This document shows positions 5,936-31,554 of a DNA stretch of 64,000 nt, in pieces. Source of the DNA: a virus; the IMG/VR virus record IMGVR_UViG_3300017925_000001, positions 45,725 to 109,724 of that record, one strand, 5' to 3'. The notes under the pieces were generated by a model that saw nothing but the letters and a program-made list of their open reading frames with translations, had not been told where the DNA came from and searched no databases. Numbering within the stretch: the first letter of the stretch is position 1; the number at the start of each line of letters is the position of its first letter. The position numbers and the translations under genes were made by a program.

Positions 5936-6016
5936 AATCCCAAAGCTTAGCGGCTTTGGTGTAGAGTCGGGAGGTGCCATTCCACCTCCCCGCTCGACCT
6001 GAATGGAGGAACTATG
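5936..6016 (+). promoter_or_regulatory. Structured RNA leader, copy A (two hairpins plus SD-overlapping pseudoknot)
   Basis: P1 CCAAAGC/GCTTTGG, TAGAG linker, P2 GGGAGGTG/CACCTCCC, loop CCATTC complementary to GAATGG at 6001-6006 overlapping GGAGG. Confidence 0.8.
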
Positions 6017-7009
6017 ATTAACAGAAATTTTGTGCGTTTAGTTTTGGCTGAAGGTGGAACAATCAAACCGTTGATGATTTCTTCTGTTGACTCTGGTGGG
6101 CTTGGGCTCTGTAACCCGTCAGTGTTTGTTGATCACGGTGAAATTTGGTTGATACTCAGAAATGTCAGTTACACGATATACCACTGCGAAAATGAGAAGA
6201 GATTCAATAGTCGGTATGGTCCGCTGAGTTATCTCAATCCAGAGCATGACCAGCATTTGCGGACTACGAATTTTCTTTGTAAGTTGACACCAAGTCTCGA
6301 AATAGAACGATACTGGAAAATCGACACTAGCCATCTCGACAAAGAACCGCTCTGGGAGTTTACGGGTTTGGAAGACGCTCGTCTCGTACGTTGGGATGGG
6401 CATCTGTACGGTATCGGAGTTCGGCGTGATACAACAACCAACGGTCAGGGACGGATGGAGTTTTCGGAACTCGAATTGGTCAACGACACTGTAAAGGAAA
6501 TCGGGCGATATAGAATTGAACATCCTACGGCTCCTGAATGGTATTGTGAAAAGAATTGGATGCCAGTGTTGGACATGCCTTACCATTTCATCCAGTGGAC
6601 AAATCCTGCGGTATTGGTTAAAGCTAACCTTACGACTTTGAAGTCCTATCGGGCGATTGAGGTCAATGAGTCTGGCAAGATTGAAGGCATGCCATTTCTC
6701 CGTGGGGGTTCCCAAGTAATCCCTTGGCATAACTATTACATCTGTATTGTCCACGACTGTGACCTGACCAAGAATCTCATAGGACAAAAAGATGCTACTT
6801 ACATGCATCGGTTTGTGGTCTATGACCGGAATTGGAATATAGTTAGGATTGGCGACCAGTTCTCTTTCATGGATGGGGAAATCGAATTCTGTTGTGGACT
6901 CGCAGAATATGAGAAGGACTTCTTGATGACGTTCGGTTTTCAAGATAATAGTGCTTGGATTTTGAAAATTCCATCATCTATAATTCCCAAATTGATCGGA
7001 GTAGCATGA
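6014..7009 (+). CDS. Beta-propeller glycoside hydrolase/phosphorylase-like protein (GH130/GH43-like)
   Basis: 'NPSV', 'GLEDARL', 'EKNWMP', 'LRGGS' and 'IEFCCGL' motifs. Confidence 0.65.
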   Translation: MINRNFVRLVLAEGGTIKPLMISSVDSGGLGLCNPSVFVDHGEIWLILRNVSYTIYHCENEKRFNSRYGPLSYLNPEHDQHLRTTNFLCKLTPSLEIERYWKIDTSHLDKEPLWEFTGLEDARLVRWDGHLYGIGVRRDTTTNGQGRMEFSELELVNDTVKEIGRYRIEHPTAPEWYCEKNWMPVLDMPYHFIQWTNPAVLVKANLTTLKSYRAIEVNESGKIEGMPFLRGGSQVIPWHNYYICIVHDCDLTKNLIGQKDATYMHRFVVYDRNWNIVRIGDQFSFMDGEIEFCCGLAEYEKDFLMTFGFQDNSAWILKIPSSIIPKLIGVA

Positions 7010-7743
7010 CCTTCTATACTTACACGTATCTTCGTGCAGACGGAACTCCGTATTATATCGGTAAAGGGAAAGACTATCGTGCGTTCAAGAATGGGGGTCG
7101 CCCATGCAAGAAACCGATTTACCATTCTCGTATTCTAATCCAATATTGGAAGTCTGAAGAAAAAGCGTTTGAAATGGAAGTCTGGTGGATCAATTTTTGG
7201 GGACGTAAGGATAACGGAACAGGTATTCTTAGAAATTTATCTGATGGAGGCGCAGGCAAGGCGGGATTTATACCTGACCCTGAACAGGGGCGCAAACACA
7301 GCAAATTTCTGAAAGACAAATTTGCATCAGGAGAGATGGGACCTCCCGGCGCTCAGTCTATAGAGGCGAGAAAAAAATTAAGTACATCGCTGAGGGCGGG
7401 ACATGCCTCTGGGGAAATAGTTACTTACAACAAAGGAATCCATGCTACTGATGAGCAAAAGGCAAAATGGTGGACGCCAGAACGGAGAGCCGCTCAAGCC
7501 GAACGGTGTCGTAAAATGGCAATGGAAGTTATTTTTACTCCTGAGCGTAGAGCTGCTTTAGCCGCTGCCGCTGCTAAAAGATTTAAGGGAATTCCTCAAT
7601 CCGAAGAACAGAAAACCCGAGCTAGAGAAGGTTGGAAAAAAGCTTGGACTCCAGAACGTAAAGCCGCTCGATCTGAGAGGGCAAAAGCGCAGGGATTTGG
7701 AACTATTATTCATCCATCAGTTCGGAGGAAAGATGTTTCCTGA
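7006..7743 (+). CDS. GIY-YIG-like homing endonuclease with helical DNA-binding repeats
   Basis: 'FYTY...PYYIGKG...R', 'E...E', 'LRNLSDGG' followed by NUMOD3-like repeats. Confidence 0.8.
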   Translation: MTFYTYTYLRADGTPYYIGKGKDYRAFKNGGRPCKKPIYHSRILIQYWKSEEKAFEMEVWWINFWGRKDNGTGILRNLSDGGAGKAGFIPDPEQGRKHSKFLKDKFASGEMGPPGAQSIEARKKLSTSLRAGHASGEIVTYNKGIHATDEQKAKWWTPERRAAQAERCRKMAMEVIFTPERRAALAAAAAKRFKGIPQSEEQKTRAREGWKKAWTPERKAARSERAKAQGFGTIIHPSVRRKDVS

Positions 7744-8290
7744 ATTACTGAGATATATATCTGATCCCAAGAATGCAGAATATAATTTCCAACTCGGACT
7801 TTGGTATGAGAATTGGGGTCACACTGCGGGAGCAGCGGGTTTCTATGTTCGGGCGGCAGAATACTCCTCAGATGCTTTGCTATCCTATGAAGCTTTGCTG
7901 CGAATCGCCAATATCTTTACACGGCAAGGTGGTCGTGTCTACATGGTCAAGGGTGTTTTGTTGCGGGCCATATCCTTGATACCAGAGAGACCCGAGGCAT
8001 ATTTTCTTCTTAGTCAAGTGTATGAGAAAAACAAGGATTGGCAAGAAGCATACAGCTTTGCTGTAATGGGGCAACGACTCAGCGAAGACCAGCCTAAGCT
8101 TAGGACAAACGTGGAATACCCGGGGAAGTACGCTCTGGTTTATGAGCAGGCTGTCTCCGCATGGTGGATTGGTTTGTTCAAGGAATCCATCACTCTTTTT
8201 AAGCAGCTTCAGAAAAACAAGACAATGCTGCCGATCCATAGCGTATCCGTACAGGATAATTTGCAACGTTTAGAAGGATTAGTAAGGTAG
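7733..8290 (+). CDS. TPR-repeat protein
   Basis: Helical repeats such as 'AISLIPERPEAYFLLSQVY'; GGAGG SD inside the upstream gene end. Confidence 0.7.
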   Translation: MFPELLRYISDPKNAEYNFQLGLWYENWGHTAGAAGFYVRAAEYSSDALLSYEALLRIANIFTRQGGRVYMVKGVLLRAISLIPERPEAYFLLSQVYEKNKDWQEAYSFAVMGQRLSEDQPKLRTNVEYPGKYALVYEQAVSAWWIGLFKESITLFKQLQKNKTMLPIHSVSVQDNLQRLEGLVR

Positions 8291-8311
8291 AAACAGGAAT
8301 AGGAGTTCAAT

Positions 8312-9151
8312 ATGTCAGTAACACTTTACCCAGGTGGTGACAACCCTGTCACTCCGAATCTTGGTTTGGCCTTGTGGGACATGAGCATGACCATGGCTGA
8401 GAACTTTGAACTTCTGGACTCGGCTGTGGCAGCAGGAAGCCTCAAGGTGAATGAGGCTTTGGTCACAGCCCCAAACTTTGTCAACAGCCCTACCGTCACG
8501 TTTTCTGCGGTTGGGTCAAATATTTCCTTAAACGCAGCTGATGATTTTTTATCTCTTGCTGGTAATACACCTACTACCCCAGTAACGGGCTCCATTTACT
8601 GTAATGCTTCATTCACTTTACCAGTTGTTGGAGATTTTACTGGAGGATGGACTACTGAGGATGTCACAGGAAATATTATCGCATCTGGTAACAGCTCTTT
8701 AGTAGGAGGGCCAGCAATATTTTTCACTGTACCGGGCTTTGCATACTATTTCAGTGCAGACTTGGCCGGTGTATCATTCAACTCTCTAGCGGGTGCCACA
8801 ATAGAAATTCTTAAAGGTTCTGGTGTTGATGTAGCCCACGTAGGAAACTCTACCGGTAATGCCGGAATGGAAACAGACACATTTAGCCCTGATAGTAACA
8901 GCTTTTATGGTGATCCAGTAGTTATTGGACAAAGTAACGATACTATATCTTCTAACTCAATCGTTATCTCTAGCGCAACCGGAACAATAGTCAATGGTCC
9001 GTTTATTGAGGCTACAACTAAAACTCCGGCATCATCTTCTGCCGCAGGGGTCACGGGCCAGATCGCTTGGGATCAAAGCTACATCTACGTTTGTTTGAAC
9101 GGCTCAACTCCGAAATGGGGTCGGGCAGCACTCACTTCGACAGGTTGGTAA
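8312..9151 (+). CDS. Fibre/spike-like virion protein
   Basis: TPNL anchor motif shared with 3642; C-terminal 'TPASSSAAGVTGQIAWD..YIYVC...W' module. Confidence 0.7.
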   Translation: MSVTLYPGGDNPVTPNLGLALWDMSMTMAENFELLDSAVAAGSLKVNEALVTAPNFVNSPTVTFSAVGSNISLNAADDFLSLAGNTPTTPVTGSIYCNASFTLPVVGDFTGGWTTEDVTGNIIASGNSSLVGGPAIFFTVPGFAYYFSADLAGVSFNSLAGATIEILKGSGVDVAHVGNSTGNAGMETDTFSPDSNSFYGDPVVIGQSNDTISSNSIVISSATGTIVNGPFIEATTKTPASSSAAGVTGQIAWDQSYIYVCLNGSTPKWGRAALTSTGW

Positions 9152-9185
9152 AGAAAGAAAGAAAGAGAAAACATAGGAGAATTAA

Positions 9186-9719
9186 ATGAAGAACGTATTG
9201 AAAGCGGTTTTATTCGCTGCTATGTCTATCTCTTTATTTGGGACATGCCTTGCACAAGAAGGCAGATTGCAAGTAAAGACTCAGACGCACACTTTAGCAC
9301 TAAAAGAAAAAATCAAGGTTGATCCACCTACCAAGTATGTTTTGTCTGGCACCTATTTGGTATCCGGCAACGGCAATGTAACGTACATAGAACCTTTGTC
9401 TGTTACGTATCTTGACGACCCCTTAACAGTAACGTGCGCGAGCACATGTTCAATCCTAGGCAGCTTAACAGTGCAGACCAGTGGAAGTATTTCCAGTAAT
9501 AACCTGGCTGTATGTATGCTTGTGGATGGAGAACCTGTTCCAAACGGTTGTCAATGGTCTACTGATACTCCAGGTGATGGTACTTTTGTTGAAAGTTCTG
9601 TTTCTTCTTGGGTAGTAGATTTGCCTGCTGGGGAACACACAGTACAGACGGCCATAGCTTCTGAGTATGGCTGTGATTATGAATACTGGGGCTTTCAATA
9701 TTCTGTGTACAAGCCGTAG
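9186..9719 (+). CDS. Secreted/periplasmic beta protein with signal peptide
   Basis: N-terminal basic-hydrophobic-CLA signal; AGGAG SD. Confidence 0.6.
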   Translation: MKNVLKAVLFAAMSISLFGTCLAQEGRLQVKTQTHTLALKEKIKVDPPTKYVLSGTYLVSGNGNVTYIEPLSVTYLDDPLTVTCASTCSILGSLTVQTSGSISSNNLAVCMLVDGEPVPNGCQWSTDTPGDGTFVESSVSSWVVDLPAGEHTVQTAIASEYGCDYEYWGFQYSVYKP

Positions 9720-9725
9720 GGAAAG

Positions 9726-9800
9726 CATCTCAGGTCCTCGAAACCTGGGCTAGAGCTGGAAGGAGCCTAACTCTCCTTCCTTGCTCGATCTGATTTAAGA
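9726..9800 (+). promoter_or_regulatory. Structured RNA leader, copy B (pseudoknot partner degenerate)
   Basis: CATC-P1(CTCAGGT/ACCTGGG)-CTAGAG-P2(GGAAGGAG/CTCCTTCC)-CTCGATCT. Confidence 0.7.
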
Positions 9801-9837
9801 GCTGAATATCTAGAAAAGTGGAAGGAAGGGTAGCGAT

Positions 9838-9864
9838 ATCGGACATAACCTTAAACAACTGGGT
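9838..9864 (+). CDS. Exon 1 of the tail tubular-like gene (putative ATC start; (M)GHNLKQLG)
   Basis: In frame with exon 2 after removing 9865-10106; AAGGAAGG SD at 9822-9829; no ATG/GTG/TTG in frame after the stop at 9811. Confidence 0.55.
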
Positions 9865-10106
9865 AAGTAAGTTGCCCCCTCAGTCAGTAATGATTGAGCG
9901 CAGAACCAAGAGAATTCGGTGAAACGCCCTCTGGGCCAATACCGAGCCGAGCCGCTAATGCGGAAGGTGTAACGACTATCCCGCAAGGGAGTAGGGAACA
10001 GTGTTCCCGAAGTACTTGGGGTCCTGAAAAGGATCATGATATAGTCTGGTCTTACTGGCAACAGTAAGAGTTCGAATGGAAACGATTCGAGCGTAACATA
10101 TAAACG
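9865..10106 (+). ncRNA. Group I intron (IA-like, ORF-less, 242 nt)
   Basis: P1 GGGT|AA...TTGCCC with U-G wobble; P3 CCAAG/CTTGG; P4 TTCGGT/ACCGAG; P7 GACTAT/ATAGTC; P7.1 and P7.2 hairpins; P9 with GCAA loop; terminal G10106; P10 AAGTT/AGCTT. Confidence 0.9.
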
Positions 10107-13100
10107 ACAGCTTCTTTGGATTGTTTTGGCGGTCTTATTACCATGGCTCAAGCCCGTGATTTGCCCGAAGGTGCGAGTCCGAGATGTTTCGACGTTGACT
10201 TTACAGTCGGTAGCGTAGCCACTCGTCCCGGCTTAGTATCCGTGTATACCTACGCAAATACTTGGGCCATCACCTCGTACTCCCTTGGTAGTGGTGGTCT
10301 TGCAACATTTAACTACACCGGTATCCCCGAGATCACCGAGAACGAAGGATTGATCCTCAGCGGATTCCAAGGACCTCTCAGTGTTTTGAACGGAACCACG
10401 ATATATGCCGAAGCTGTAACCATGAACACTTTCATGGCACAAGTAGTTGGACCCTTGGGCACCTTTGTCAACCTAAGCGCCAGCGCAGTTTCCCTAGTGG
10501 GCTCCTTTGTAGGGCCTAACCAAGGGGTTGCCTCTAGCACTTCTTGGAGTAGTCCGCAGAACGTGTTCAGTCCCACGGGGTACGCCTCGGCAAGCGGAGG
10601 ACAGACATACAGCCCTGCGATTGTCCCTGGATCAACGTCTAGCACTTCATCTACAGCTTGGACTAACCCAAGCTATGCTTTGTCCACAAGCCCAAGTACG
10701 TACGCTACTGTGAGTTCTCTTGGTGCAGGAGTGTCCGCACCCCTCTATGCGAGTGCTTTGGGCTTGTCTGTACCTCCCAATGCAACAATCACAGGGGTGA
10801 AGGTCGCATTCTCTGCTAGAGCTACAGAGGCCAGCGGTAATCCATACGTCATTGCTCAGCTTGTGCTGGGAGGGTCGCAAAGTTACTTGGGAAGCGCAGT
10901 AAATATTCCTATCGCAGCGAATGGCGCGAGTTTGGCTCCATACAATTATGGTTCCTCAACGTTTCAATGGGGTACCACTCTGACGCCCGCGATTGTCAAT
11001 GATCCTACTTTCGGGTTTGACCTAAGCGCTTTCACGGGAACTCTGTCGAACAACTTTCATTATTATTTGAACAGCCTCGTGGTCGCGGTTTACTACACCA
11101 CATCGGCTACAACAGAGATTCTGACGGCCAACAGTTTCGGATTCTCGATCTCGTTGTCTTCTGGAGTCTCAGGGTTCAACACCACTTTCAAAGCGTATTC
11201 CAGCGCATCTACTTCGGCAGTGTTTCAACTACTTGAGAACGGAGTTCCTCAGGGCACTCCTAAGACTCTTCCTCTCACCACTACGCCCACGGTGTATAAT
11301 CTGGGCGGGCCTGAGGACCCTTGGGGCTATGTCTGGTCAGCAGCCAACGTCAACTCTCCGCAGTTTGGAATTCAGATCACAGCCGAAGGAGTCGGCACTA
11401 CGTACGTAGGGGACTTGGATGTCACCACATTTGTCACCCCGGCGCTATCGAATTTCAACTGGATTGGGAGCTATGAGCAGACGAATGCTGCGCTTACCAC
11501 TCTGGCTCTTGATGCTGATGGCAACATGTGGGCTGAGAACGTTCTCAATAACCCTGGGGTACTATCGCTCTCATTGAGCGGTTTGCTTCCAGATTCGTAC
11601 GCGGTTGGAGCTACGATGAATGATTCCGAGTTCATCATGTTCTCGGATCTGAATATCGGCACCGACCGTCCTCGTCAGCTCTACAACGATGGAAACTGGT
11701 ATCCGGTGACCCAAGTGGGCCCTGGTAGTGCTCCGACATTCTTGGCTTCCACAGGTGGGATTACTAATACCCTGCACATCAGCGCTTACACAGCAGTCGC
11801 AGGCACACCCACTATTCCGTCATCAACGACCTTCACAATATCACCTGTGGCAGCTGTAGCTCCGGTTGTTGGATCACTTTATGTACTGAGCGGATTCACT
11901 GGGCCGGACGCAGTATTGAATGGTCAGGTGGTCACGGTTTTGACAGGTGCAACCACTGCTAGCTTTTCAGCAGATGTATCGGTTACTGCTCCAGGCAACA
12001 CCGCTGTCGTAGCTCTTGCTACGCTCACCTTCGCATATCCCATAGAGAGCATCAAACAATTGGGGTACATTACGAGCGGTCTGAGCGGTGGGGTGCTTTG
12101 GTTCCTTCTGAGTACAGGACCTAACCAGTCTGCTCAGGGCAGTGTAGTGACAGTGTACTACGCATATGCATCGCCTTCACTAGCGCCAAATTTGAACCTT
12201 CAGAATGCTTGGAATGCGTCTGTGGCTGGAACTGGTCCTCCAGTTTACGTGCAGATCAATAATGCAGCCAATGTCAATGGTTACAATTTTGATGGGATCT
12301 GGCAAGTCACAGGCATAGGGTACAACCATTTCTTGGGGTATACCTCACAGGGGTATTACTTCACTTTCCAGTACACTGAGTCTGGTTTTGCCAACGGCAC
12401 CAACAATGCCACGGCTTATCTGACACAAGCCACGTTGACCTTAGCTTCCCCTGGTGTCGTTGGGATCACGAATAATACACCCATCACTATTACAGGGGTC
12501 ACAGGAAGTTCTCCAGATCAGGTAGGGTACAACAATACGTGGGTTATCACCAACGCTGTCAATACAGGTCAGTATAACATCACTGAATCCCAGTATAATG
12601 GCGCTGGGGTTGCGACCTTCACATACAACTTCGCCTCTTTAACTAATAGTCAAGTTCCTGTTGTAGGTAATACCATTCAGATCATAGGCGTCACCAACAA
12701 TGCCGCCATGAACGGTATCTTTGCAATTTCGGCTGTGAATGCTGGCGCTTCTACATTCAGCGTGCTAGTGACTATCCCAGGCCTTGCAGCGCAGCCCTCA
12801 GCTATTGCTGAGAATAGTGCGCAGGCAACTATGGCTGGTACGCAGTTCATATTTGATCCTGGGGCTTTGCTGGCGGGCAGCGCATCTGGAAATGCTATAT
12901 TTGGAACAGCGACCGATGGAGACGTATCATTCATTGGTGTTACGCTGGTTCCGATAGGGGCAGGTACGCGCCAAGGTGTCGTGTTCTTCATTACGAAGAC
13001 TGGCTCTTGGACGCCTGCGTCTCCTCCTGTAACATTCACTATTGCAGCTGATGCAAACCAGCTCAATGTGTCGAATATCCCAATTGGACCTCCTGATGTC

Positions 13101-15134: not shown

Positions 15135-15218
15135 TATCTCAAGGCTTAGCGGCCTTGGGCTAGAGTTGGGAAGTGCTATGAACACTTCCCTTCTCGCCTT
15201 TTCATAGGAGGAATTATG
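15135..15218 (+). promoter_or_regulatory. Structured RNA leader, copy C
   Basis: P1 CTCAAGGC/GCCTTGGG with loop TTAGCG; P2 GGGAAGTG/CACTTCCC; loop CTATGAA complementary to TTCATAG 15201-15207 abutting GGAGG. Confidence 0.85.
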
Positions 15219-15884
15219 CCAACAGGAATTTATGAAAGAAAACCAACAATACCTAGAATGTCTAACTGTCACCCTGATAGAAAACATTTTGGAAAAGGAA
15301 TGTGCAACCAGTGTTATCATAAGGCTTACCACGTACAGCATAAGCACTCGTTTGTAGATGAGTTTGGTATTTCAATACCAGAGGGCTTCTATACCTACCT
15401 CTGGTTCAGGGCAGATAGCACCCCATATTATGTGGGAAAAGGCAACGGAAAAAGAGCCTACGTAAATCATGGACATTCGTTTCACAGACCTGTGAGTAGG
15501 GCAAGGATTTTTGTGCAATATTGGGAGTCTGAGGAAAAGGCGCTTGAGATTGAGGCTTGGTACATTGCTTTTTATGGGCGCATAGACAAAGGCACAGGTT
15601 GTCTCAGAAACCTAACAGATGGAGGAGAAAATCCTCCAGGCAATAAAGGTGTAAAGTTTTCAGAAGAGCACAAACGAAAAATAAGTGAAGCACAGAAAGG
15701 CCCTAAGGGACATTGGTTTGGAACAAAGAGGCCTTTTGTTTCTAGAGGTAAAGGTCGAGTACAAAACCCTGAATGGATTGCTAAAAGGGTAGCCAGTACA
15801 AAAGCAACTCGTGAGTGTAAGAAGAAAGGAGACCCTACGGTATGCAAGGCAGAACTAGCGCGCTCGATGGCGGGCAAGAGCTAA
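15216..15884 (+). CDS. GIY-YIG-like homing endonuclease (NUMOD3), paralog of 7006..7743
   Basis: 'FYTYLWFRADSTPYYVGKG', 'LRNLTDGG', 'FSEEHKRKISEAQKG'. Confidence 0.8.
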   Translation: MPTGIYERKPTIPRMSNCHPDRKHFGKGMCNQCYHKAYHVQHKHSFVDEFGISIPEGFYTYLWFRADSTPYYVGKGNGKRAYVNHGHSFHRPVSRARIFVQYWESEEKALEIEAWYIAFYGRIDKGTGCLRNLTDGGENPPGNKGVKFSEEHKRKISEAQKGPKGHWFGTKRPFVSRGKGRVQNPEWIAKRVASTKATRECKKKGDPTVCKAELARSMAGKS

Positions 15885-19870: not shown

Positions 19871-22800
19871 ATGCCTACAGTAGAAGAGCTTCAGGGAGAC
19901 AAGGATTTCATGGCGGCTACACCCGCTGATCAGCAACGATATTTATCCTCTGTTGACCCTGAATTTAAGGCCGCACACCCTGAGGATCAATCTGCATACT
20001 TGGCTCATGTTACCAATGCACCAACAGGTGAGCAACCAAAGCAAGGTGCGCTTGACACAGCTAATCAGCAGTATGAAGGTCCTGGGGTAGTCAATGCTTT
20101 GGGGCGCGTAGCTACTATGCTACCAAACATGGCTAAACAGGCGTACCATGCTTTCACAGACCCGCGTACGGAAGAGGAAAATAAACTAGATAAAACACCT
20201 GTGGTTGGTAATGCTGCATTGGCCGCGAAGCGCATGCTGTTGGACCCAAGTCAACAGGCGTATGAGAAGACAGAGAAAATGGCGAGAGACCGTGAACAGT
20301 ATTTTGCTGAGCATGGTCAAGAAGATCCCCATCCGATACAGGCCAAGATGGCTGAGGCTGGCGGTAAAGCCATGTCAATGATCCCGATGGTCGGGCCTTG
20401 GGGTATGAGTTTAGGAGAGCGTGCCGGTAAGGGAGATGTCTCTGGCGCGTTGACCGAGGCGGGAAGTCTGGCTCTTGCTCCTGAGATCGCGCATGAAGCA
20501 ATGCCGGGTGGAGCATTACCGGGCGCGGCTGAAGCTGGCGCTCGTCCATTACCTACAGCTGATGCGGCTGTTCGCATGGGAGCACGCGGAGCTACTAAAG
20601 TACAACCTATGCTACCCACAGCAATTGGTGCAGTAGCAGGTGAAACCGTTGGTCACCCTTATTGGGGCGCTATCGCTGGGCGTATTATGCTTCCACAAGC
20701 GTGGCTTGGTCCTCTTCTGGAGAAAGGCCGAACTTTTGGTCTTGATGCTAATGAGGCAGGTATTGTACATCTAGGTGAACGATTACAACAAGCGGAAGCT
20801 GCTGCTGCTGAAGCTAAGACTGCGTATGATGCGCACAAACCTGGACGAGAGCAAGGTATTCCTGCTCCTAAGGAAGTGCTTGATGCATATGAGAAAACAC
20901 AGACTGCTCTGCAGACAGCGCAAGCACACTTCCAAGCTGCACAAGAAGACTACCTAGCTAAGAGAGGTAGACCTCCAGTATCTATGGAACTTTCCCCTGA
21001 GCAACAAGCTGCCCAGGCTGAGCGTATGACGCCCCCTCCGACTAATGAAAAGCTGGGAGCACGCCAAGAAAAGCTGATGGCAGACATAGAGGCCAAGGCT
21101 CCCCCGTATGCAGAAGGGACTGAGCCACTTCCTCGGATGGGAGAAAAACAACCTGGGATGACCGAAGGTAAACCGGAGGTCCCTGCCGAGGTAAAGCCCG
21201 AGGTTGCCCCTATCATGACCGCAGGTAAACCTGAGCGTGCCCCAAGTATGGCTGGGCTAAAAGTGACGCCCGAAGGCAAAGTAGAGGATACCACCGCTAT
21301 ACAAACGGCAACCAAGGAAGCCCTAGGGGCAGAGAAACCAGCTAGGATGGTCCCAGCTACCGAAGGTACGGCAGTGAGACCTGGGGAAGTGCCACCGATG
21401 CGTGGTGAATATACTCCAGCACCTGCACCAGCACCAGAAGTTAAGGCAGCTCCAGTTCCAGAAGCTAAGATTCCTGCAAAGGAACCCGGTCTGATGGGCC
21501 CTGAGAAGGAATTGGCGCACGAAGGACGCTCACCTGAGGATCTAGCGAAGGTAGACCGTGCCGTCGCTGAACTGCCCAATCAAGACCTCCAAAGGCTGGG
21601 CACACGTTTTGGTCTAGATGAGTCAAAGTATGACTTCTCAAAGCGCGAAGCTACCCGTGAGGGTGGCAGCAAGCACCCAATAGAGCGTGAGAAATTCTCC
21701 AAGGACACCCAGGAAAAACTACCTGAAGCCCTGAAGAACCATATCGTAGATGCGGCGAAAGCCTTTGATGAGAAGAATCCCGATGTCTTTAGTCCGCAGG
21801 ACTTGAGTTCTTCTGGGAATGCTGCGCGTGCCAGAGCCATCCTGACTGAGGCAATGAAGCGCTATACGGACGAACTTGCTGCCAAGGGGCAAGCAGGGGG
21901 CGCACCTGCTGACATACGTACGCAGGTCGGAGCACACAACGCTAATGGAGGCTCTACATTTCACCCAGAAAAAGGTGATCTAAAAGGCCAACCCTACTTT
22001 GCTGTGGGCGGTGAGCCTGAGTTCAAGAACCCAGACCTGAAGATGACAGTCAAGGGCGGGGAATTGACTGCTGAGCAACTCAAAGAATTCTCTGAGCGTC
22101 CTGCGGTTAAGGAAGCACTTGCTAAGCATCCCGATGCCAGCATAGGTACATGGCATGATACTGGGGAAGACAACACAGTTGTGGAATTGGTTAAAACTCC
22201 AGCAGCTCGTGACGAGGCTATCGCCATGGGTGTCAAGAATGGCGAGAAAGCCATCTATGATCTGAAGGAAGGCAAGGAAATCCCTACTGGGGGCGACCAA
22301 AGCAAGATGAGCGCAGAGGATCGCGCCAAGGTTCAAGAAGAGCTTGCCAAGGAAGGCCAAAGTGGTGGTGCTCCTGGTGTAGTTACCAAAGAGGCCAAAC
22401 TACCCACAGGTGATGACTTGATCAAGAAGTATGGGGAATCCAGTGGGGACCCTGCGCAGACTACATTCATCCTGAAGGATGGACGTGGTGTAGCCAACAC
22501 TGGTGTTGACCATGATGTGATGCTGGGTGGCAAAGCTACCGATGTAAATCCTCGGCGCGAGCAGTTCATACAGGATGGAAACATTCGCGTACGTCCTCGC
22601 TCGGGAGGCAAGGCCGGTAGAGAAGTAGCCATCTCCATACCAGATGATGGAATCACTGCAGAGCAGATGAAGTACCTTCAGAAGATGAGTCCGCAGTTAC
22701 GAAGCGGAGTCGTCATGATGGAGGGTAGCAAAGCTGGTTCCAAGTACAAGGTTCTGGAGTATGGCGCTGCTACAAATGAAGCTCTGGAAGATGCAGTCAA

Positions 22801-23956: not shown

Positions 23957-24041
23957 TATCCCTCGGGGTTGCTCCCGAGGATAGAGTGGGGAGGTGCTCA
24001 TTCCACCTCCCTGCTCGACCTGAATGAGAGGAAAACATATG
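23957..24041 (+). promoter_or_regulatory. Structured RNA leader, copy D
   Basis: P1 CCTCGGG/CCCGAGG; P2 GAGTGGGGAGGTG/CACCTCCCTGCTC; loop CTCATTC complementary to GAATGAG 24022-24028 overlapping GAGAGG. Confidence 0.85.
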
Positions 24042-24539
24042 CCAGCAAAAGGACAGTTTCAAACACACTGTAAACGTGGCCACAAAATATCAGGAGACAA
24101 TCTGCATATTGTAAAAAGTACAGGTCAAAGAATATGCAGACGATGCCGAAGAGAAAGAGTCAGCGTCTATAGGAGTTCTGAAAAAGGAAAAAAAGCATCA
24201 CGTAGTACAGCTAACAACAATAGAGAAAAGATAAAGGTAGAAGTTCTCACGCACTATGGAAAAGGTGGGAAGCTTATGTGTTGTTGGTCTGGTTGCAAAA
24301 TTTGTGACTTAGACATGCTAAGCTTAGACCATGTGAAAAATGATGGTCAAGAACACGTTAGTGAAACAGGTATAAGGTATCTAGGCATACGTCTATATAG
24401 ATGGGCAAGGAGAAATAATTTTCCAAAAACTTTGCAAACCCTATGCTTTAACCATCAGCACAAAAAAGAAATTGTCAGGCGCAAAAAGAATAGGATCGAC
24501 AATCGTGAAAGAGATGCCAAGCGCATCGGAAGGAATTAA
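24039..24539 (+). CDS. HNH/endonuclease VII-like homing endonuclease
   Basis: 'THCKRGH...CRRC' Zn module; 'CC..C...LSLDH......G' and 'QTLCFNH'. Confidence 0.7.
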   Translation: MPAKGQFQTHCKRGHKISGDNLHIVKSTGQRICRRCRRERVSVYRSSEKGKKASRSTANNNREKIKVEVLTHYGKGGKLMCCWSGCKICDLDMLSLDHVKNDGQEHVSETGIRYLGIRLYRWARRNNFPKTLQTLCFNHQHKKEIVRRKKNRIDNRERDAKRIGRN

Positions 24540-24541
24540 CA

Positions 24542-25302: not shown

Positions 25303-25518
25303 ATGGGATATAGCAATGAATTAGAAGTAACGAATCTCTTGCTTACCACCAATCTGCTACAGCAGACCAATGAACTTCAGGTTGCTAATGCTCTTTGGGC
25401 TGGAGGGGGGCAACCAATCCCCCCTAGTCCTCCGGTTTCTGCAAGCGGTTTCGAATTGGAAGATGGATCAGGAGTAATTTTGTTAGAGAGCGGGGATATC
25501 CTGCTTTTGGAGAATTAA
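25303..25518 (+). CDS. Small fibre-associated protein
   Basis: C-terminal 'FELEDGSGVILLESGDILLLE' motif, which commonly precedes 'KISAL' fibre genes. Confidence 0.55.
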   Translation: MGYSNELEVTNLLLTTNLLQQTNELQVANALWAGGGQPIPPSPPVSASGFELEDGSGVILLESGDILLLEN

Positions 25519-25522
25519 TAAT

Positions 25523-26497
25523 ATGGCAAATACTAAAATCAGCGCTCTCACTTCTGGCAACCCTGCACAGGCTGGAGATGTAATTCCCATCGACCGTACA
25601 GGCGCAAACTTTTCAATTACAGCAGGTAGTATAGCTGCTCTAAACACTCTGCCTCAAACTGCTGCTGCTGTCGGATCAAAGTGGCTAAACAGTTACACAG
25701 CGTCCACAGGTGTATTCACAGAAACCCAGCCTACATTCACCGATTTATCGGCACACCCTACTACTCTTTCTGGGTATGGCATTACTGATGCTCTTCCTAT
25801 CGCTGGAGGAACTCTTACAGGTGCTCTATTATTCTCTGCTGATAACACATACGCTATAGGAGCAGCGGGTGCCACACGTCCAAGTACAGTGTATGCGGGC
25901 ACTTCAGTTGTTTCGCCCCTTGTGTCTATACCGTCTACTGGTGTAGTGGAATGGAGTATAGGGAGTAGTCCTGCTGGTATTAGTTATACAGGAGCTGCAT
26001 CACTTTCTATAGGTAATGGAACTTCTGGTGATTATTCTGGAGAGCTAAAGTTATCTACGCTGGACATTGGAGCGTACGCGGTTACCACACACATTCAGAT
26101 TAGCGCAGCTAATAGCAATATCACATTTCAAGATTCTTCGGGTGATCCAAAAATTGATTTAACGAGTACTGCTGGTCTTTTACTGTCAGATGATCTATAT
26201 ATAGGGTGGGGAGCCGATAGTGTACACTATTTTCCTCCTAGCACAAGTATTTCAAATCCTTCGGCTGGTACTGTTTCAATAGATACTACATCTGTTGGCA
26301 ATGGCCTTGGCTCTCTCACAGCAGCTAAATTAATCGAGAATGCTACGCTTACCCCTGCTTCCGCTACGACAGCAGGAGTAACAGGACAAATCGCTTGGCA
26401 AGGCACGAATGGCACAACTGGACAAATCTTCATTTGTACTTCTGGTGGTACCGCAAGCAACGCAATCTGGATGGCTGCAGCGTTGACCAAGGTGTAA
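25523..26497 (+). CDS. Tail fibre-like protein
   Basis: 'ANTKISAL' N-terminus, 'PTTLSGYGITDA' fibre motif, shared C-terminal module. Confidence 0.75.
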   Translation: MANTKISALTSGNPAQAGDVIPIDRTGANFSITAGSIAALNTLPQTAAAVGSKWLNSYTASTGVFTETQPTFTDLSAHPTTLSGYGITDALPIAGGTLTGALLFSADNTYAIGAAGATRPSTVYAGTSVVSPLVSIPSTGVVEWSIGSSPAGISYTGAASLSIGNGTSGDYSGELKLSTLDIGAYAVTTHIQISAANSNITFQDSSGDPKIDLTSTAGLLLSDDLYIGWGADSVHYFPPSTSISNPSAGTVSIDTTSVGNGLGSLTAAKLIENATLTPASATTAGVTGQIAWQGTNGTTGQIFICTSGGTASNAIWMAAALTKV

Positions 26498-26506
26498 AGG
26501 AGATTT

Positions 26507-27823
26507 ATGGCTGATCAATACCCTGCAAGTGGACTTACACCCAATTTAAAGATGACTCTGGAAGGAATAGCAGTTGGAATAGCTACTAACTTTCTTGAGC
26601 TTGACTCATTGTTTCCTAACGGGCCAACCCCATCAGGCTATCTTCTTCTTACTGGGGGTACCATAGCAGGTAAATTGGGAATTGTTCCCGCTGGTACTGT
26701 TGGTACAAGCCCTGTAGATGCTATTGACATTCTGCTTCCTCCTATAGGAGCAGATTCTTATTTAAAAATAACAGCTCCGGGTTTGACATATTCTCTAAGA
26801 GCTGGATCAGCATCTCTTAATCAATATGATATTATGGCCAATATGATTAGAGACGCAGTGGGAAATACCTATGCTGATGACCCAACGCATGTTGGCCTAC
26901 AATTCGCTATTTCCCCAGAAGGTAATCTTCATAATAGCGAATTTTGGTTTGCTGTTAATCCTGTCGGCGGAAATGGATCTGATATAGTTTTTCTTGTAAC
27001 TGGAGATGGTGTTGTAGGTATACCTGGCACATCCAGTGGACCTAGCACTCCTAATGGAGGAGTATTTGGTTGGTCAAACATTTATCCCGTTGATTATGAC
27101 CAATTAGACACCTATTTATGCCGTCTTTCACCCGGTGTTATAGGTATCGGGGCCAGTATAGGGTCTTACAACGGTTTTGATGGCTCTCTTAAACTTACTA
27201 ATTTGACTGTTGCTGGATCATTTACTGATAATTTATCCTCAACCGGATCGCTTGGGCAAGTTTTGAGCAGCACCGTAACAGGTATAAAATGGGTAGCTGC
27301 TCCTAGCCTTATATCTGCTGCATGGGCTACCTTGTATGGTGACCTGACTGAGAACCAAGTTATTCCTTGGGATGGGCCTACTTTAGGCATACCAGACACA
27401 GGTATTTCCCGTATTTCCGCGCACACTCTTGCATTCGGAAACGGGTCTGCCGGGGATTATTCTGGTCATCTACAAGCTGCTGTGTTTACGGATGGAGCGG
27501 GAACGTATTTATCCGGTGGAACTATACGTTTGGGAAATGGTGCAGGACAGATCAATATTAGTGGCTCTCAGATTTTATATGGTGGAGGAAATGGTTATGG
27601 TAATACCGGACACCTATTTTATATTGATGGGGTTGGAGAAGTTTTTTCGGTTCTATCCACCGGCATAGTACTATTGCCTTTGACTCCGCCTACTTCTGCC
27701 CATACAGCTGGGACACAAGGTCAGTTGACCTCAGGTACAGACGGTAATTTATACTTCTGTTCGATATCGGGACCGGGGGGTGGTGCAACAACTTGGAACA
27801 AACTCAGCATGACCGCAGTATAA
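26507..27823 (+). CDS. Tail fibre-like protein
   Basis: TPNL anchor motif; modules shared with 3642 and 25523. Confidence 0.75.
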   Translation: MADQYPASGLTPNLKMTLEGIAVGIATNFLELDSLFPNGPTPSGYLLLTGGTIAGKLGIVPAGTVGTSPVDAIDILLPPIGADSYLKITAPGLTYSLRAGSASLNQYDIMANMIRDAVGNTYADDPTHVGLQFAISPEGNLHNSEFWFAVNPVGGNGSDIVFLVTGDGVVGIPGTSSGPSTPNGGVFGWSNIYPVDYDQLDTYLCRLSPGVIGIGASIGSYNGFDGSLKLTNLTVAGSFTDNLSSTGSLGQVLSSTVTGIKWVAAPSLISAAWATLYGDLTENQVIPWDGPTLGIPDTGISRISAHTLAFGNGSAGDYSGHLQAAVFTDGAGTYLSGGTIRLGNGAGQINISGSQILYGGGNGYGNTGHLFYIDGVGEVFSVLSTGIVLLPLTPPTSAHTAGTQGQLTSGTDGNLYFCSISGPGGGATTWNKLSMTAV

Positions 27824-27833
27824 AGGAGGCCCC

Positions 27834-28313: not shown

Positions 28314-28322
28314 GAGAAAGAA

Positions 28323-28658
28323 ATGCAAGTTCAAACAATAGTGCCGCTTATGACACTGCTTTACAAGGTGTTCATGGGCCTGCTGGTCGCGGGAGGAATA
28401 GGTATTATTATGTGGCCTTTTAGATCCATACGAAAAGAGTGGAGAACCTTGAAAGACAGCGTAGCCGAGACGCATGCGGAGCTTGTCACCCAAAGGACGA
28501 ACTGTCTTACCACACTTCAAAATCAGGGGGATCGCCAAATCGAACTTTTAGGCAAAGCTGTGGAAACCCTTGGAAATATCCACACTTCTCAGGCTGCAAT
28601 GTCTGGTTTTATGCAGGCAACGCAGATCATAGCGGCTCCAACCCGTCGCAAACGGTAG
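28323..28658 (+). CDS. Holin-like membrane protein
   Basis: Single N-terminal TM helix, coiled coil and basic tail at the end of the structural block. Confidence 0.4.
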   Translation: MQVQTIVPLMTLLYKVFMGLLVAGGIGIIMWPFRSIRKEWRTLKDSVAETHAELVTQRTNCLTTLQNQGDRQIELLGKAVETLGNIHTSQAAMSGFMQATQIIAAPTRRKR

Positions 28659-28688
28659 TTGACAAGCAGCTTCAGTTTGTGGTATAAT
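28659..28688 (+). promoter_or_regulatory. Sigma70-type promoter TTGACA-N18-TATAAT (extended -10)
   Basis: Perfect hexamers at 28659-64 and 28683-88 with TGn before the -10. Confidence 0.85.
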
Positions 28689-28728
28689 GTTTATGAAGTA
28701 AATCAGTGACTCAGAAAGGTCAAATTTA

Positions 28729-29496
28729 ATGCCAGAGCCAAAGATTTTGTTTTTGGATATAGAGACGTTTCCCAACCTTGGGTACGTCTGGGGCAAATAC
28801 GACCAGAATGTCATTCGTTACACGCAGCAAAGTTGTATCGCTACCTTCGTAGCAAAGTGGGCAGGGAAGAAAGAGATCATCACTAAAGCTTTGCCAGATT
28901 ATGCTGGGTACAAGCCCGGTTCATACAGTGACAAGGCAATTGTTTTGGATCTCTGGAAACTGTTTGATGAGGCAGACATAATCGTCGCACATAATGGGGA
29001 TCAGTTTGATGTGAAAGTGGTGGTGGGCCGCTTTATCCTCCATAATATGCGCCCTCCAAGCCCGTTTAAAACAATTGATACCAAGAAACTCACCAAAGAA
29101 GTTGCTCGTTATAATTCGAACGCTTTGGACGATCTCTGCGGCCAGCTTTTCGAAACGCACAAGATCAAGACGGACTTCGATTTGTGGGAAGGTTGCATCA
29201 ATGGTGATCCGAAGTGTTGGGCAAACATGGTCAAGTACAACAAGGTAGATGTTCTTTTGTTGGAAAAACTGTATTATCGTTTAGCTCCTTTTGCAAAGAC
29301 ACATCCGAACCTGACCTTCTGGACTCGTGGAGAATGCCCCAAGTGTGGCGGTCATAACGTTCAGTACCGAGGGGTTGCCCGGTGTATCACTCGGCAATAC
29401 CAGAGATTCCAGTGCAACGACTGTGGCAGCTGGGGTCGGGTTGCGAAGAGCGATAAAGGTGCTGGCACCAAAACGGTTAACGTTCCAATTTGTTAA
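28729..29496 (+). CDS. RNase H-like/DnaQ-type 3'-5' exonuclease with Zn ribbon
   Basis: 'LFLDIET', 'AHNGDQFD', 'YNKVDV', CPKCG...CNDCG. Confidence 0.85.
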   Translation: MPEPKILFLDIETFPNLGYVWGKYDQNVIRYTQQSCIATFVAKWAGKKEIITKALPDYAGYKPGSYSDKAIVLDLWKLFDEADIIVAHNGDQFDVKVVVGRFILHNMRPPSPFKTIDTKKLTKEVARYNSNALDDLCGQLFETHKIKTDFDLWEGCINGDPKCWANMVKYNKVDVLLLEKLYYRLAPFAKTHPNLTFWTRGECPKCGGHNVQYRGVARCITRQYQRFQCNDCGSWGRVAKSDKGAGTKTVNVPIC

Positions 29497-29514
29497 CAAA
29501 AGGAGACTCAGTAA

Positions 29515-29688
29515 ATGTCACAAGTGGAGTACATAGTACGTGTAGAGGGAATGCACAATTCATTTGGTCTTGGAGAAAAGATCGGTGATGGCATTACCCT
29601 CTTTAGGGCCGGTATGTATAACCTCACAGCAGAAGAAATCGACGCGAAGGTGAAGCAGACTCGGGCTCGGAAAGTCGAGAAGCTTTGA
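29515..29688 (+). CDS. Small hypothetical protein (57 aa)
   Basis: AGGAG SD; MSQVEYIVRV...; below the ORF-track cutoff. Confidence 0.45.
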   Translation: MSQVEYIVRVEGMHNSFGLGEKIGDGITLFRAGMYNLTAEEIDAKVKQTRARKVEKL

Positions 29689-29812
29689 TGGAATATATTG
29701 AAGCAGCTTTTTCCCTCCTCATCGTCCTTGCAGTTGTGGGGACAATCATCCTCAGTCTCTATGGTGCGATCTCGGCGCTCGTCTGGCTTACGCGCTACAT
29801 TTGGTGGAAGCG

Positions 29813-30523
29813 ATGATTATTGGGCCAGTGATTCACTCGGTGATCCTAGGCTACGGACATCGCGCTCGTTCTGGAAAAGACACCGCAGCCTCGATTATTA
29901 TCAAAGAACGCGGAGCAGAGTTTGACATACGCCGATATAGTTTTGCAAGTGAATTGAAGGCTGAGGTCAACCACAACGCTATGAAGGCTGGCGGCATGAA
30001 GAATTTGTTCGCTGACGGTCTACGCTTGGAAGGTTGCGGGTATATGCAGGAGAATGAAGAACTCCTGCGACTACCAGAATGGGTACAAATGGACCCCAGT
30101 CCCGATATGAGCGATCCCGAATGCCCATATGGCAAGCAACGCTCGCTCTTGCAATTTTGGGGAACAAACCTTAGACGATCAGTGAACGAAAACTACTGGC
30201 TCAACAAAGTGAAGCAGCGTATTGCCGATGAAAAACCACAGATCGCCCTGATCACAGACTTGCGTTTTTTAAACGAAGTGAATTTTATACTCACATACGG
30301 GGAAGTGATTCGCATCGACCGTCCTGGTCTCCCGCCTCTCAGTGAGGCGCACGAATCAGAGCTAGCTTTGGCCAATTATGATGGTTGGTCCGACATTATC
30401 AAGAACAATGGCACGCTGAACGAGTTCAAGGAAAAGGTTCTCTTCAGCTTTGACATGTTGCTTTCAGCAGTTCCGCAAGAGCACCGAACAGAGGAACCGA
30501 AAGGTACGGTGGTGAAGGTGTAA
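29813..30523 (+). CDS. Deoxynucleoside monophosphate kinase
   Basis: 'GHRARSGKDT' P-loop, 'RSLLQFWGT', 'ITDLRFLNE', 'HESE'. Confidence 0.85.
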   Translation: MIIGPVIHSVILGYGHRARSGKDTAASIIIKERGAEFDIRRYSFASELKAEVNHNAMKAGGMKNLFADGLRLEGCGYMQENEELLRLPEWVQMDPSPDMSDPECPYGKQRSLLQFWGTNLRRSVNENYWLNKVKQRIADEKPQIALITDLRFLNEVNFILTYGEVIRIDRPGLPPLSEAHESELALANYDGWSDIIKNNGTLNEFKEKVLFSFDMLLSAVPQEHRTEEPKGTVVKV

Positions 30524-30555
30524 TGCTCTGAACTGAGCACCTTCAAGGACTCACT

Positions 30556-31470
30556 ATGAAAAAGTATTTGCTACCGATCCTGCTGTGGGCCCTCCTCGGA
30601 TTGGCCTCGGCAACCGTCACACCAGCACAGAAAACATTGCAGCACAAGGCTACGCACACGATTGTCATGTCGAATGAGAAGGCACATGATGGAGCTGGTT
30701 GCTCCGCAACGGCAATCTCTGAACATGTCCTGCTCACTGCTGAGCACTGCAATGTCCCAGGCAGTGTGCTTTACCTTGATCAGAACAACAGACCTTACCA
30801 GCACCCGCTGGAGATCTCAGAGCGGTACCTGGATCATCAGGATCATATGCTCCTAGTTCTCCCAGGCGTCTCGTTCAAGAACTTCGTGGATTATGGCTCC
30901 GCTGCTCCTTTGAAGCAGGGTGACCATTACTATCTGTGGGGCAACCCAGGCTTGATTCGAGACCAGTACCGCGAGGGCTACGTCACCGGGTCAATTGTTG
31001 ATCCGATCTATGAGATGGAGATTGATGCAGTCAGTTCCTTTCTCATGTTGAATGGACCTGTGATTGGTGGAGATTCAGGCAGCGCAATATTCAGCGCCGA
31101 AGATGGCCACCTTGCAGGAGTCCTGACGTACGGGATGGAGTACGGTATGTTCGCAGGCGTCTATCCGCTCGCGTTCACAGCTGATCAGATCGCGCAGGCC
31201 GAGGGCGTAGGTTCATTCGTCTACTTGCCCGACACTCGCCCGGTCGTCAATGTCAATGCTACTGCAGCTCACTCTGTAGTCGATCATAGCGAAGCTCCTC
31301 TGTGGGCTCTGGTGTGGTTGTTCGCAGTCTGCATCTTGTGGTACACGCTGGGTGGCGTGTTCAAGACACTAGCCAAGGGCATACGCGGGGCAGCAGGGCC
31401 GGTCTGGAAGGCAATGAAGTACGTGGGGCGGCTGTTCAAAACTGCATACCAAACTTTAAAGAAAATATAA
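30556..31470 (+). CDS. Trypsin-like serine protease, secreted and membrane-anchored
   Basis: Signal peptide, 'TAEHC', 'D', 'GDSGS' triad; C-terminal TM helix. Confidence 0.85.
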   Translation: MKKYLLPILLWALLGLASATVTPAQKTLQHKATHTIVMSNEKAHDGAGCSATAISEHVLLTAEHCNVPGSVLYLDQNNRPYQHPLEISERYLDHQDHMLLVLPGVSFKNFVDYGSAAPLKQGDHYYLWGNPGLIRDQYREGYVTGSIVDPIYEMEIDAVSSFLMLNGPVIGGDSGSAIFSAEDGHLAGVLTYGMEYGMFAGVYPLAFTADQIAQAEGVGSFVYLPDTRPVVNVNATAAHSVVDHSEAPLWALVWLFAVCILWYTLGGVFKTLAKGIRGAAGPVWKAMKYVGRLFKTAYQTLKKI

Positions 31471-31473
31471 TTA

Positions 31474-31554
31474 CATCTCCCGGGGTTGCTCCTGGGGGCT
31501 AGGGCCCTAGCGTGACTCCATCGCGTTGGGGCCTGTCCTATGGAGGGACACATG
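31474..31554 (+). promoter_or_regulatory. Structured RNA leader, copy E
   Basis: P1 CTCCCGGGG/TCCTGGGGG with loop TTGC; CTAGGG linker; P2 GGCCCTAGCGTGA/TCGCGTTGGGGCC; loop CTCCA complementary to TGGAG (the SD). Confidence 0.75.

Follow-up and report, generated by a model that had tools for sequence, protein, structure and literature searches.

A three-hairpin RNA leader with covarying loop-loop pairing ahead of homing-endonuclease genes in uncultured peat and soil phages

Five copies of a structured RNA leader are dispersed over the window, the 64 kb stretch of DNA analysed here, which forms the right-hand part (bases 45725-109724) of a 109,724-bp phage record with direct terminal repeats (IMG/VR record IMGVR_UViG_3300017925_000001). 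The leader, ~85 nt long, comprises three hairpins, denoted P1, P2 and P3, and a pairing between the loops of P2 and P3 that involves the Shine-Dalgarno (SD) sequence of the gene behind it. All four of these structural parts covary, and 88 of the 96 distinct proteins encoded downstream of the family's members are nuclease-like. The reading we favour, and consider fairly probable from the sequences, is that the leader acts in cis as an SD-masking 5′ RNA of free-standing homing-endonuclease genes inside long late transcripts and attenuates their translation. Few selfish genes are as common in phages as those for homing endonucleases; to our knowledge, a handful of hairpins in T-even phages, unrelated to one another, are the only known examples of how such enzymes are kept harmless within essential late operons. 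In the phages studied here, nuclease families that share no relationship are served by a single conserved RNA design, present at up to ten sites in a genome.

Architecture and covariation of the leader

The initial annotation of the window had described five copies, each right after a stop codon, with stems that differ in sequence and keep their pairing. Both points were borne out. The ATC that opens each copy was confirmed at 5937, 9727, 15136, 23958 and 31475, 1-7 nt past the stop codon of the upstream open reading frame (ORF) in all five cases, the corresponding distance across the whole family being 0-8 nt; P1 starts ~3-10 nt past the stop codon. The P1 hairpin of 6-9 bp is followed by a short junction ending in an invariant AG, by P2, by a linker of 1-3 nt and by P3. 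P2 almost always has ~13 rungs (10-13 pairs over 31-33 nt), a loop of 6-7 nt and, usually, a G-rich 5′ arm, and P3 is a hairpin of 3-4 bp with a 6-7 nt loop that is the exact complement of the P2 loop. RNAfold predicted P1 and P2 in all five window copies, with z-scores of -3.0 to -3.6 in four of them. The five copies were used to build a covariance model of the P1-P2 core, denoted R1, which scored them at 64-77 bits, the next best match in the window reaching 17 bits. The copies, all on the plus strand and given with their R1 scores, are:

5937..6016, +, leader copy 1 (75.7 bits): ATC 5937-5939; P1 5940-5959; P2 5964-5995 with loop CCATTC at 5977-5982
P3 of copy 1, +: arms CCT 5998-6000 and AGG 6007-6009; loop GAATGG 6001-6006; ATG at 6014
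9727..9791, +, leader copy 2, an orphan (64.3 bits): P1 and P2 intact; P2 loop CCTAACT
15136..15218, +, leader copy 3 (77.2 bits): P1 15138-15159; P2 15163-15195 with loop CTATGAA at 15176-15182
P3 of copy 3, +: arms CCTT 15197-15200 and GAGG 15208-15211; loop TTCATAG 15201-15207; ATG at 15216
23958..24041, +, leader copy 4 (74.9 bits): P1 23961-23980; P2 23984-24016 with loop CTCATTC at 23997-24003
P3 of copy 4, +: arms CCT 24019-24021 and AGG 24029-24031; loop GAATGAG 24022-24028; ATG at 24039
31475..31554, +, leader copy 5 (70.9 bits): P1 31477-31498; P2 31502-31534 with loop CTCCA at 31516-31520
P3 of copy 5, +: arms GTCCT 31535-31539 and GGGAC 31545-31549; loop partner TGGAG 31541-31545; ATG at 31552

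The four loop pairs of copies 1, 3, 4 and 5, first noticed in the initial annotation, are exact complements, and copy 2 is partnerless, as that account had implied. The P2 stem of copy 5 has a wholly different sequence, with the register unchanged.

The family was collected by sequence-pattern scans of contigs followed by R1. A first short-pattern scan of viral contigs combined with R1 gave 59 matches, to which further searches added more; a stricter pattern applied to metagenome contigs gave 67 loci, all of them true members, and 87 R1 matches. After deduplication, 110 distinct leaders from viral and peat metagenome contigs were obtained, so that at least 110 natural variants exist, and the genes behind them are mostly nuclease-like. 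A covariance model of this kind had been proposed as a check together with the initial annotation. In the genome of the window's phage (denoted G000 when whole-genome coordinates are given), R1 revealed two further copies outside the window, on its upstream side; they follow the terminase and portal genes, and each lies ahead of a GIY-YIG-type gene. Three diverged copies were also confirmed, bringing the genome to ten copies, five of them in the window. The leader thus adds a well-supported new RNA family to the catalogues.

Covariation in P1 and P2 was evaluated on a 46-sequence alignment. Pairing was retained in 86% of cells as against 72% in shuffles, none of 500 shuffles reaching the observed value, and 17 of the 21 pairs had changed on both sides. 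When the registers were slid by 1-3 columns, only 43-50% of cells remained paired. The lower three pairs of P2 alternate between GAG/CUC, CUC/GAG and CGC/GCG.

The pairing of the two loops varies in sequence and is regular in position. An exact complement of the P2 loop, at least 6 nt long and in a fixed place after P2, is present in 98 of the 110 distinct copies and takes 54 different strings. In a cis/trans control on the first 45 distinct copies, a cis complement of at least 6 nt was found in 40, compared with 1.7% in trans for different loops. The mean duplex energy of the loop-loop helix is about -6.6 kcal/mol, and the partner strand ends 7-9 nt from the start codon in 82 of 98 copies. 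The loop pairs constitute a natural library of orthogonal 6-7 nt kissing pairs that is useful in RNA engineering.

According to the initial annotation, the P2 loop pairs with the sequence running into the SD. This pairing stands, but its partner is not a free strand: it is the loop of the covarying hairpin P3, the 3′ arm of which is the SD. The three pairs flanking the P3 loop are all formed in 83 of 99 copies (mean of 48 and maximum of 59 in 1000 shuffles), and the arms occur in the combinations ACCU/AGGU, AUCU/AGAU, AACU/AGUU, GUCC/GGAC, CUU/AAG and CCUU/GAGG. The SD (GGAG or GGAGG) is split between the two helices, its first two bases (GG or AG) lying in the loop-loop helix and the remainder forming the 3′ arm of P3. 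Because the partner strand is flanked by arms that pair with each other, the putative lock consists of a loop-loop ("kissing") pairing plus a stem. MAFFT left the loop-partner region unaligned in the full set, and this region was therefore tested by scripts and on a subset of fixed length. Because the members of that subset were selected for a paired loop-loop helix, they provide no independent evidence for it.

Many of the pairs are G-U pairs on the plus strand, and the opposite strand gives no full-length matches, which points to an RNA of the plus strand. About five unpaired positions are invariant or nearly so; little variation is seen in the A located two bases 5′ of P1, in the AG preceding P2 and in the GAYCU that follows P2. 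The P1 loops fall into two classes, one tetraloop-like (TAGC, TTGC, GACG) and one of 7-11 nt with a central palindrome (TGATCA, TAATTA, TTATAA, TCATGA, TCGA); examples of P1 loops are found at the contig loci L022 (5821-5886), L018 (3526-3590) and L007 (1501-1564). A 6-nt palindrome is present in 12 of 21 distinct P1 loops, where 2.0 are expected and 2000 shuffles gave at most 7.

Three further candidates were tried and rejected. Pairing of the 5′ AUC with the GAY that follows P2, which would close a three-way junction, showed no consistent covariation in the alignment. An upstream ORF running from the AUC to the conserved UAG does not keep its frame between copies. Finally, a strict rule that the loops within one genome be orthogonal fails at L039 and L018, each of which has two leaders with an identical loop.

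An element of RNA processing or stability (an RNase target, a self-cleaving RNA or a 3′ end protector) that separates structural from nuclease messages would also be placed directly after stop codons, and the two stable GC-rich hairpins without a U tract, as well as the invariant AG between P1 and P2, would suit it. Phage intergenic regions often hold self-cleaving ribozymes and RNase III sites. We regard this explanation as very unlikely, given that the strongest covariation involves the SD of the downstream gene, which would be superfluous for a processing site, and that no Rfam ribozyme family matches at an E-value of 10. In addition, the copy at G000 13226, which lies behind a full sigma-70-type promoter with no upstream gene and precedes a MUG113 (GIY-YIG clan) gene, is devoid of P1 and still keeps P2 and P3.

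Nuclease genes behind the leader and modularity of the cassettes

The 88 nuclease-like downstream proteins form three clusters plus two single HNH_3 proteins, and the tie to unrelated homing-endonuclease genes that had been noticed in the window accordingly extends to the family. The clusters were recognised by Pfam matches to GIY-YIG, SegE_GIY-YIG, Endonuclease_7, HNH, HNH_3 and NUMOD3 and by the PHROG annotations "HNH endonuclease", "endonuclease VII" and "homing endonuclease". The exceptions are remnants of 2-46 codons, one unknown 154-aa ORF and the 331-aa ORF after copy 1. In the window, the leaders are followed by these genes:

6014..7009, +, 331-aa ORF, the first gene after copy 1; not nuclease-like
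7006..7743, +, GIY-YIG-like homing endonuclease with the N-terminus MTFYTYTYLRADGTPYYIGKG; phrog_314 (homing endonuclease) and phrog_15526
15216..15884, +, 222-aa endonuclease-like ORF after copy 3; NUMOD3, phrog_15526 and phrog_314, the same family as the GIY-YIG-like genes
24039..24539, +, 166-aa HNH-type endonuclease ORF after copy 4; phrog_1492 and phrog_826 (HNH endonuclease)
31552..32265, +, 237-aa HNH endonuclease ORF after copy 5; Pfam PF01844 and PF14279

Copies 3, 4 and 5 had been said to stand directly before endonuclease genes, and the Pfam NUMOD3 and HNH matches together with the PHROG matches to HNH and homing endonucleases agree with this. Copy 1 heads a GIY-YIG cassette, also as proposed: the 331-aa ORF, for which Pfam and PHROG searches gave no match, is followed by the GIY-YIG-like gene at 7006. 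The latter is without a leader of its own, and its ATG overlaps the stop codon of the 331-aa ORF (ATGA, 7006-7009). At the metagenome locus L156, a leader is likewise followed by an ORF near-identical to the 331-aa ORF. The next tail gene has its SD (AGGAG) and its ATG (15842) within the 3′ end of the 222-aa ORF (15826-15884); its translation signals are therefore provided by the cassette inserted upstream.

How tightly leader and nuclease are linked can be seen by comparison with the related phage genomes G001 and G002 and with further contig loci. At the G001 junction between the homologues of a trypsin-like gene and of the next tail gene, where there is no endonuclease, a plain 14-nt spacer with an SD is found and no leader. 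In leaders with no nuclease gene behind them (window copy 2; L030 3753 and 4165; L022 2990), P3 and the loop partner have disappeared, and these leaders resemble traces of a lost gene. An intact leader, with loop CCTAACA and partner TGTTAGG and followed by an 11-codon ORF, was observed on the minus strand of G002 (20400-20560; locus L116); this looks like a recently truncated endonuclease gene with a leader that has not yet decayed.

Conversely, one and the same junction can hold different nucleases. After a tail gene, the nuclease is of the NUMOD3 type in G000 and a GIY-YIG enzyme in G002; after the portal gene, it is a GIY-YIG enzyme in G000 and HNH-like in G002, with similar leaders ahead of both. 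A single P2/P3 module (loop CCTATCA) stands ahead of nucleases of at least four types, and the conserved CTAG junction is a point of recombination between P1 and P2 types, so that leader and ORF are separable modules. Other endonuclease genes have no leader at all. Besides the gene at window position 7006, those at G001 27551 and 11398 are ATGA-coupled, and those at G000 3358 (3320-4335, outside the window) and G001 26274 (26225-26915) have a sigma-70-type promoter of their own. These promoters read TTGACA or TTGACT, 17 nt, TATAAT, and the one in G001 lies in the tail-gene junction where G000 and G002 have a leader. The HNH ORFs of the minus arm (window 46452-46742 and 56460-56867) are leaderless, as the initial annotation had stated. 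Its further proposal that the leader travels with the nucleases holds in part: the leader is missing from the endonuclease-free junction of G001, but modules shuffle and leaderless endonuclease genes exist. The leader offers a direct handle on how mobile cassettes carry their own expression control.

Contigs of other family members from four peat or wetland runs diverge from the window exactly at 15136 and 15176, that is, at the ATC boundary and at the P2 loop. Peat contigs with a depth far above that of this phage join 15213, at the end of leader 3, to 15890, just past the endonuclease stop codon, skipping the endonuclease ORF exactly (676 nt), and one low-depth contig joins 6003 in leader 1 to 9807 past leader 2, with 36 other letters between. 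These joints may represent alleles without an endonuclease or with a different one and are not used as proof of an endonuclease-free allele.

Shuffled modules, exact divergence points and palindromes in the CTAG/GCTAGC junction and in the P1 loops could also be the marks of a DNA-level role, in which endonuclease cassettes use the leader as a site for landing or recombination, or in which it is a promoter or terminator, and the RNA fold is incidental. Comparable shuffling is mediated in T4-type phages by PeSL cassettes, which, like the leader, are short, conserved and repeated intergenic modules that flank variable or mobile genes and apparently aid their shuffling (PMC2839356, PMC4122927). 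PeSLs, however, consist of an early promoter and a terminator-like stem-loop and act at the level of DNA or transcription (PMC2839356, PMC4122927), whereas the leader has an SD-linked fold, no promoter in nine of the ten copies in the genome and no terminator features: only the copy at G000 13226 follows a sigma-70-type promoter, and no U tract occurs after P1 or P2. Nowhere else in the genome do the conserved blocks reappear as a promoter-like motif, and the leaders themselves contain no sigma-70-like site (the consensus of the phage's late promoters is not known). Moreover, the compensatory changes retain pairing through G-U intermediates and on one strand only, and the loop complement stays with the SD, at a set distance from the start codon. 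A DNA-level role in place of an RNA one is therefore highly improbable; a part in shuffling is compatible with an RNA role.

Copy 2 stands apart from the other window copies. It has no loop complement, no P3 and no endonuclease gene, and a group I intron begins ~60 nt downstream:

9855..10106, +, group I intron: Rfam match 9855-10068; 5′ splice site after U9864; exon 2 from ~10107, in the 5′ end of the gene for the 1672-aa tail protein

Exon 1 of this split tail gene (9814-9864) is open over only 17 codons, counted from a TAG, and lacks ATG, GTG and TTG in frame. It does have an AUC in frame, at 9838, located 7 nt past GGAAGGAAGGG (9820-9830), a strong SD-like run. In copy 2, the 3′ arm of P2, CCUUCCUU, is complementary to this run, which nearly duplicates the 5′ arm of P2. 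Homology of a G001 protein to the 1672-aa protein begins exactly at exon 2 (TASLD; 10107-10150).

Predicted mode of action

From the computed features (helices with their covariation, position of the SD, link to nucleases and absence of the leader at endonuclease-free junctions), we infer repression, a constitutive mode and a role for P1. The loop-loop pairing would stabilise an otherwise weak P3, a 30S subunit would rarely find the SD free, and the result would be a low nuclease output from an abundant mRNA. Repression would be constitutive rather than switched. P1 would most likely serve as a spacer because, with its start ~3-10 nt after the stop codon, a ribosome terminating on the upstream gene should melt P1 but not the P2 lock. 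The P1-less copy behind its own promoter at G000 13226, a single case, fits such an insulating role.

Several observations weigh against cis attenuation. In an A-form model, P2 (~13 rungs), the loop-loop helix of 6-7 bp and P3 (3-4 bp) would add up to ~65 Å, so that a linker of 1-3 nt could not close the coaxial stack. By this estimate, fully folded P2 and P3 could not kiss within one molecule unless the lower part of P2 melts or the helix bends sharply, and the lower P2 stem, with its three alternating pairs, covaries too. SD masking also leaves the invariant A before P1, the invariant AG before P2, the near-constant length of P2 and the palindromic P1 loops unexplained. Finally, other endonuclease genes of the same phages have no leader, which is therefore not indispensable. 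The geometry would leave two options: either an H-type pseudoknot with the lower P2, and perhaps P3, open, which amounts to two alternative states, or pairing between molecules.

Under the second option, P2 of one RNA would pair with P3 of another and vice versa, giving a closed symmetric dimer in which the SD lock depends on the mRNA concentration. Apart from the steric argument, such a dimer would account for the covariation of all helices as if they formed simultaneously and for loops complementary along their entire 6-7 nt, a feature of known kissing complexes; the self-complementary loops of P1, with their excess of palindromes, would provide a third contact. There are precedents among RNAs with other tasks. 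In the pRNA of the phi29 family, the RNA of the packaging motor, two loops were first taken for a cis pseudoknot and later found to pair intermolecularly, and the DIS of retroviruses is a genome-dimerisation signal. The leader resembles both in having complementary loops that are sterically barred from pairing in cis and self-complementary hairpin loops; it differs from them in being an mRNA leader and shows no sequence or Rfam similarity to either. Dimerisation is nevertheless unlikely in our view, since mRNAs are covered by ribosomes, dimerisation has not been established as a means of controlling mRNAs in bacteria or phages, roughly half of the copies have tetraloop-type P1 loops (TAGC, TTGC, GACG) with no palindrome, and a cis H-type pseudoknot with a melted lower P2 would still be feasible. 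If it occurs, mobile nuclease cassettes would be carrying a translational lock that senses transcript concentration and has hypervariable "address" loops. Simple in vitro work can distinguish the cis pseudoknot from the RNA dimer.

The first option touches on a proposal of the initial annotation, namely that the leader is a riboswitch-like or protein-responsive switch. A ligand, a phage or host protein, or temperature would shift the leader between an open form, with P2 complete and the SD accessible, and a form locked by the loop-loop helix. A possible mutual exclusion of the lower P2 and the cis loop pairing would suit this, as would the unpaired conserved bases (the A before P1, the AG before P2 and the GAYCU after P2). 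The cobalamin riboswitch uses a kissing loop onto a ribosome-binding-site (RBS) hairpin, and guanidine-II (mini-ykkC) riboswitches consist of two kissing hairpins; in both classes, pairing takes place between conserved loops, depends on a ligand and is coupled to an aptamer. As in the leader, the loop of an upstream hairpin pairs with that of a hairpin bearing or abutting the SD; this pairing controls initiation, as it would in the leader. In contrast, the loops of the leader are hypervariable and fully Watson-Crick paired over 6-7 nt, there is no aptamer and no Rfam match, and in place of the two ACGR tetraloops typical of guanidine-II there are variable, mutually complementary loops of 6-7 nt.

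The rpsO operator of Escherichia coli toggles between a double hairpin and a pseudoknot and thus offers another parallel, as a hairpin loop pairs near the SD and start codon and hairpin and pseudoknot may compete (PMC3985624). That operator, however, is single-copy and is bound by S15 in autoregulation (PMC3985624), whereas the leader has many copies per genome and no common protein product. The interacting loops, with 54 sequences in all, are different in almost all copies and thereby preclude a common pocket, protein site or small-RNA site; nor is there an aptamer-sized conserved core beyond ~5 invariant or nearly invariant unpaired positions. Both points make a ligand or a shared protein partner unlikely. 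With no Rfam match at an E-value of 10 either, and with unrelated nuclease families being served, which makes autoregulation by the encoded protein unlikely, the proposed switch finds no support; we give a conditional mechanism only a slim chance, and constitutive attenuation in cis is retained as the favoured reading.

Relation to known elements, phage relatives and host

The initial annotation had held the architecture to be undescribed, and our searches are in line with this. At gathering thresholds, Rfam 15 returned only tmRNA_permuted and Intron_gpI in the window, neither of them at a leader. With E-values up to 10, the five leader-centred loci gave nothing at the leaders, including the self-cleaving ribozymes (hammerhead, twister, pistol, hatchet and HDV-like). 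A blastn search of one leader against 50,697 GenBank phage records (E up to 10) yielded only one 18-nt chance match, and a full-text literature search found no published description of the leader. By function, it is an SD-masking leader; as an RNA family, it is new.

The nearest functional counterparts are the RBS-sequestering hairpins of T-even phages, which control I-TevI, I-TevII, I-TevIII, segB and mobE (the last as Aeh1 mobE) (PMC2988022). As in the leader, a cis RNA hides the SD of a mobile nuclease gene on long polycistronic transcripts (PMC2988022), presumably for the same purpose of limiting nuclease translation; the T-even arrangement, with the SD inside an RNA helix before a homing-endonuclease gene, is seen in 98 of the 110 leaders. 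The T-even structures are single hairpins unrelated in sequence, and an internal late promoter frees the RBS late in infection (PMC2988022). The leader copies, in contrast, all belong to a single conserved, multi-copy family, which combines three hairpins with a covarying loop-loop helix and serves unrelated nucleases in many phages. No sequence relatedness between the leader and the T4 or Aeh1 structures was detected by blastn of a leader against the GenBank phage records. That the leader tames toxic nucleases, as first suggested, is a supposition; in T4, viability did not suffer when the I-TevI hairpin was removed (PMC2988022).

The phage itself has no close relative among the GenBank phages, as judged by megablast of 20 kb of the window. 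Its closest cultured relatives are Tunturi_3 and Tunturi_4, phages of Tunturiibacter (Acidobacteriota), with 44-49% identity of the primase/helicase. Several peat and wetland metagenomes contain near-identical DNA, and G001 (85 kb) and G002 (104 kb) have a gene order in common with the window's phage, proteins of ~40-65% identity and several leaders each. R1 gave zero matches in Tunturi_3 and Tunturi_4. When one genome per prokaryote species was scanned with the pattern, matches were found only on small contigs (1.3 kb and 1.8 kb) of one metagenome-assembled genome (MAG) of Terracidiphilus, and R1 found nothing in 150 other sampled genomes of the family to which this MAG belongs. The two contigs are probably binned phage fragments, which leaves Terracidiphilus a candidate host at most. 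Because of this distribution (absence from the Tunturi phages and the 150 genomes, with only the small MAG contigs matched), we assign the leader to a clade of uncultured peat and soil phages, which are probably lytic.

Within the window, the late and structural genes occupy the plus strand up to ~33 kb and include those for a collagen-like fibre, the 1672-aa tail protein and other large tail proteins. The minus-strand half is devoted to replication and repair (primase/helicase, RecA, RtcB). The segments 3642-5243, 33706-34881, 40107-41234 and 57992-59230 hold a collagen-repeat protein amid virion genes and, in the minus arm, a ClpX/ClpB-like AAA ATPase, RecA and the RtcB RNA ligase. The minus strand also encodes a permuted tmRNA at 51034-51252, which received no ARAGORN call and matches Rfam RF04321 with 59.3 bits, above the gathering score of 47.

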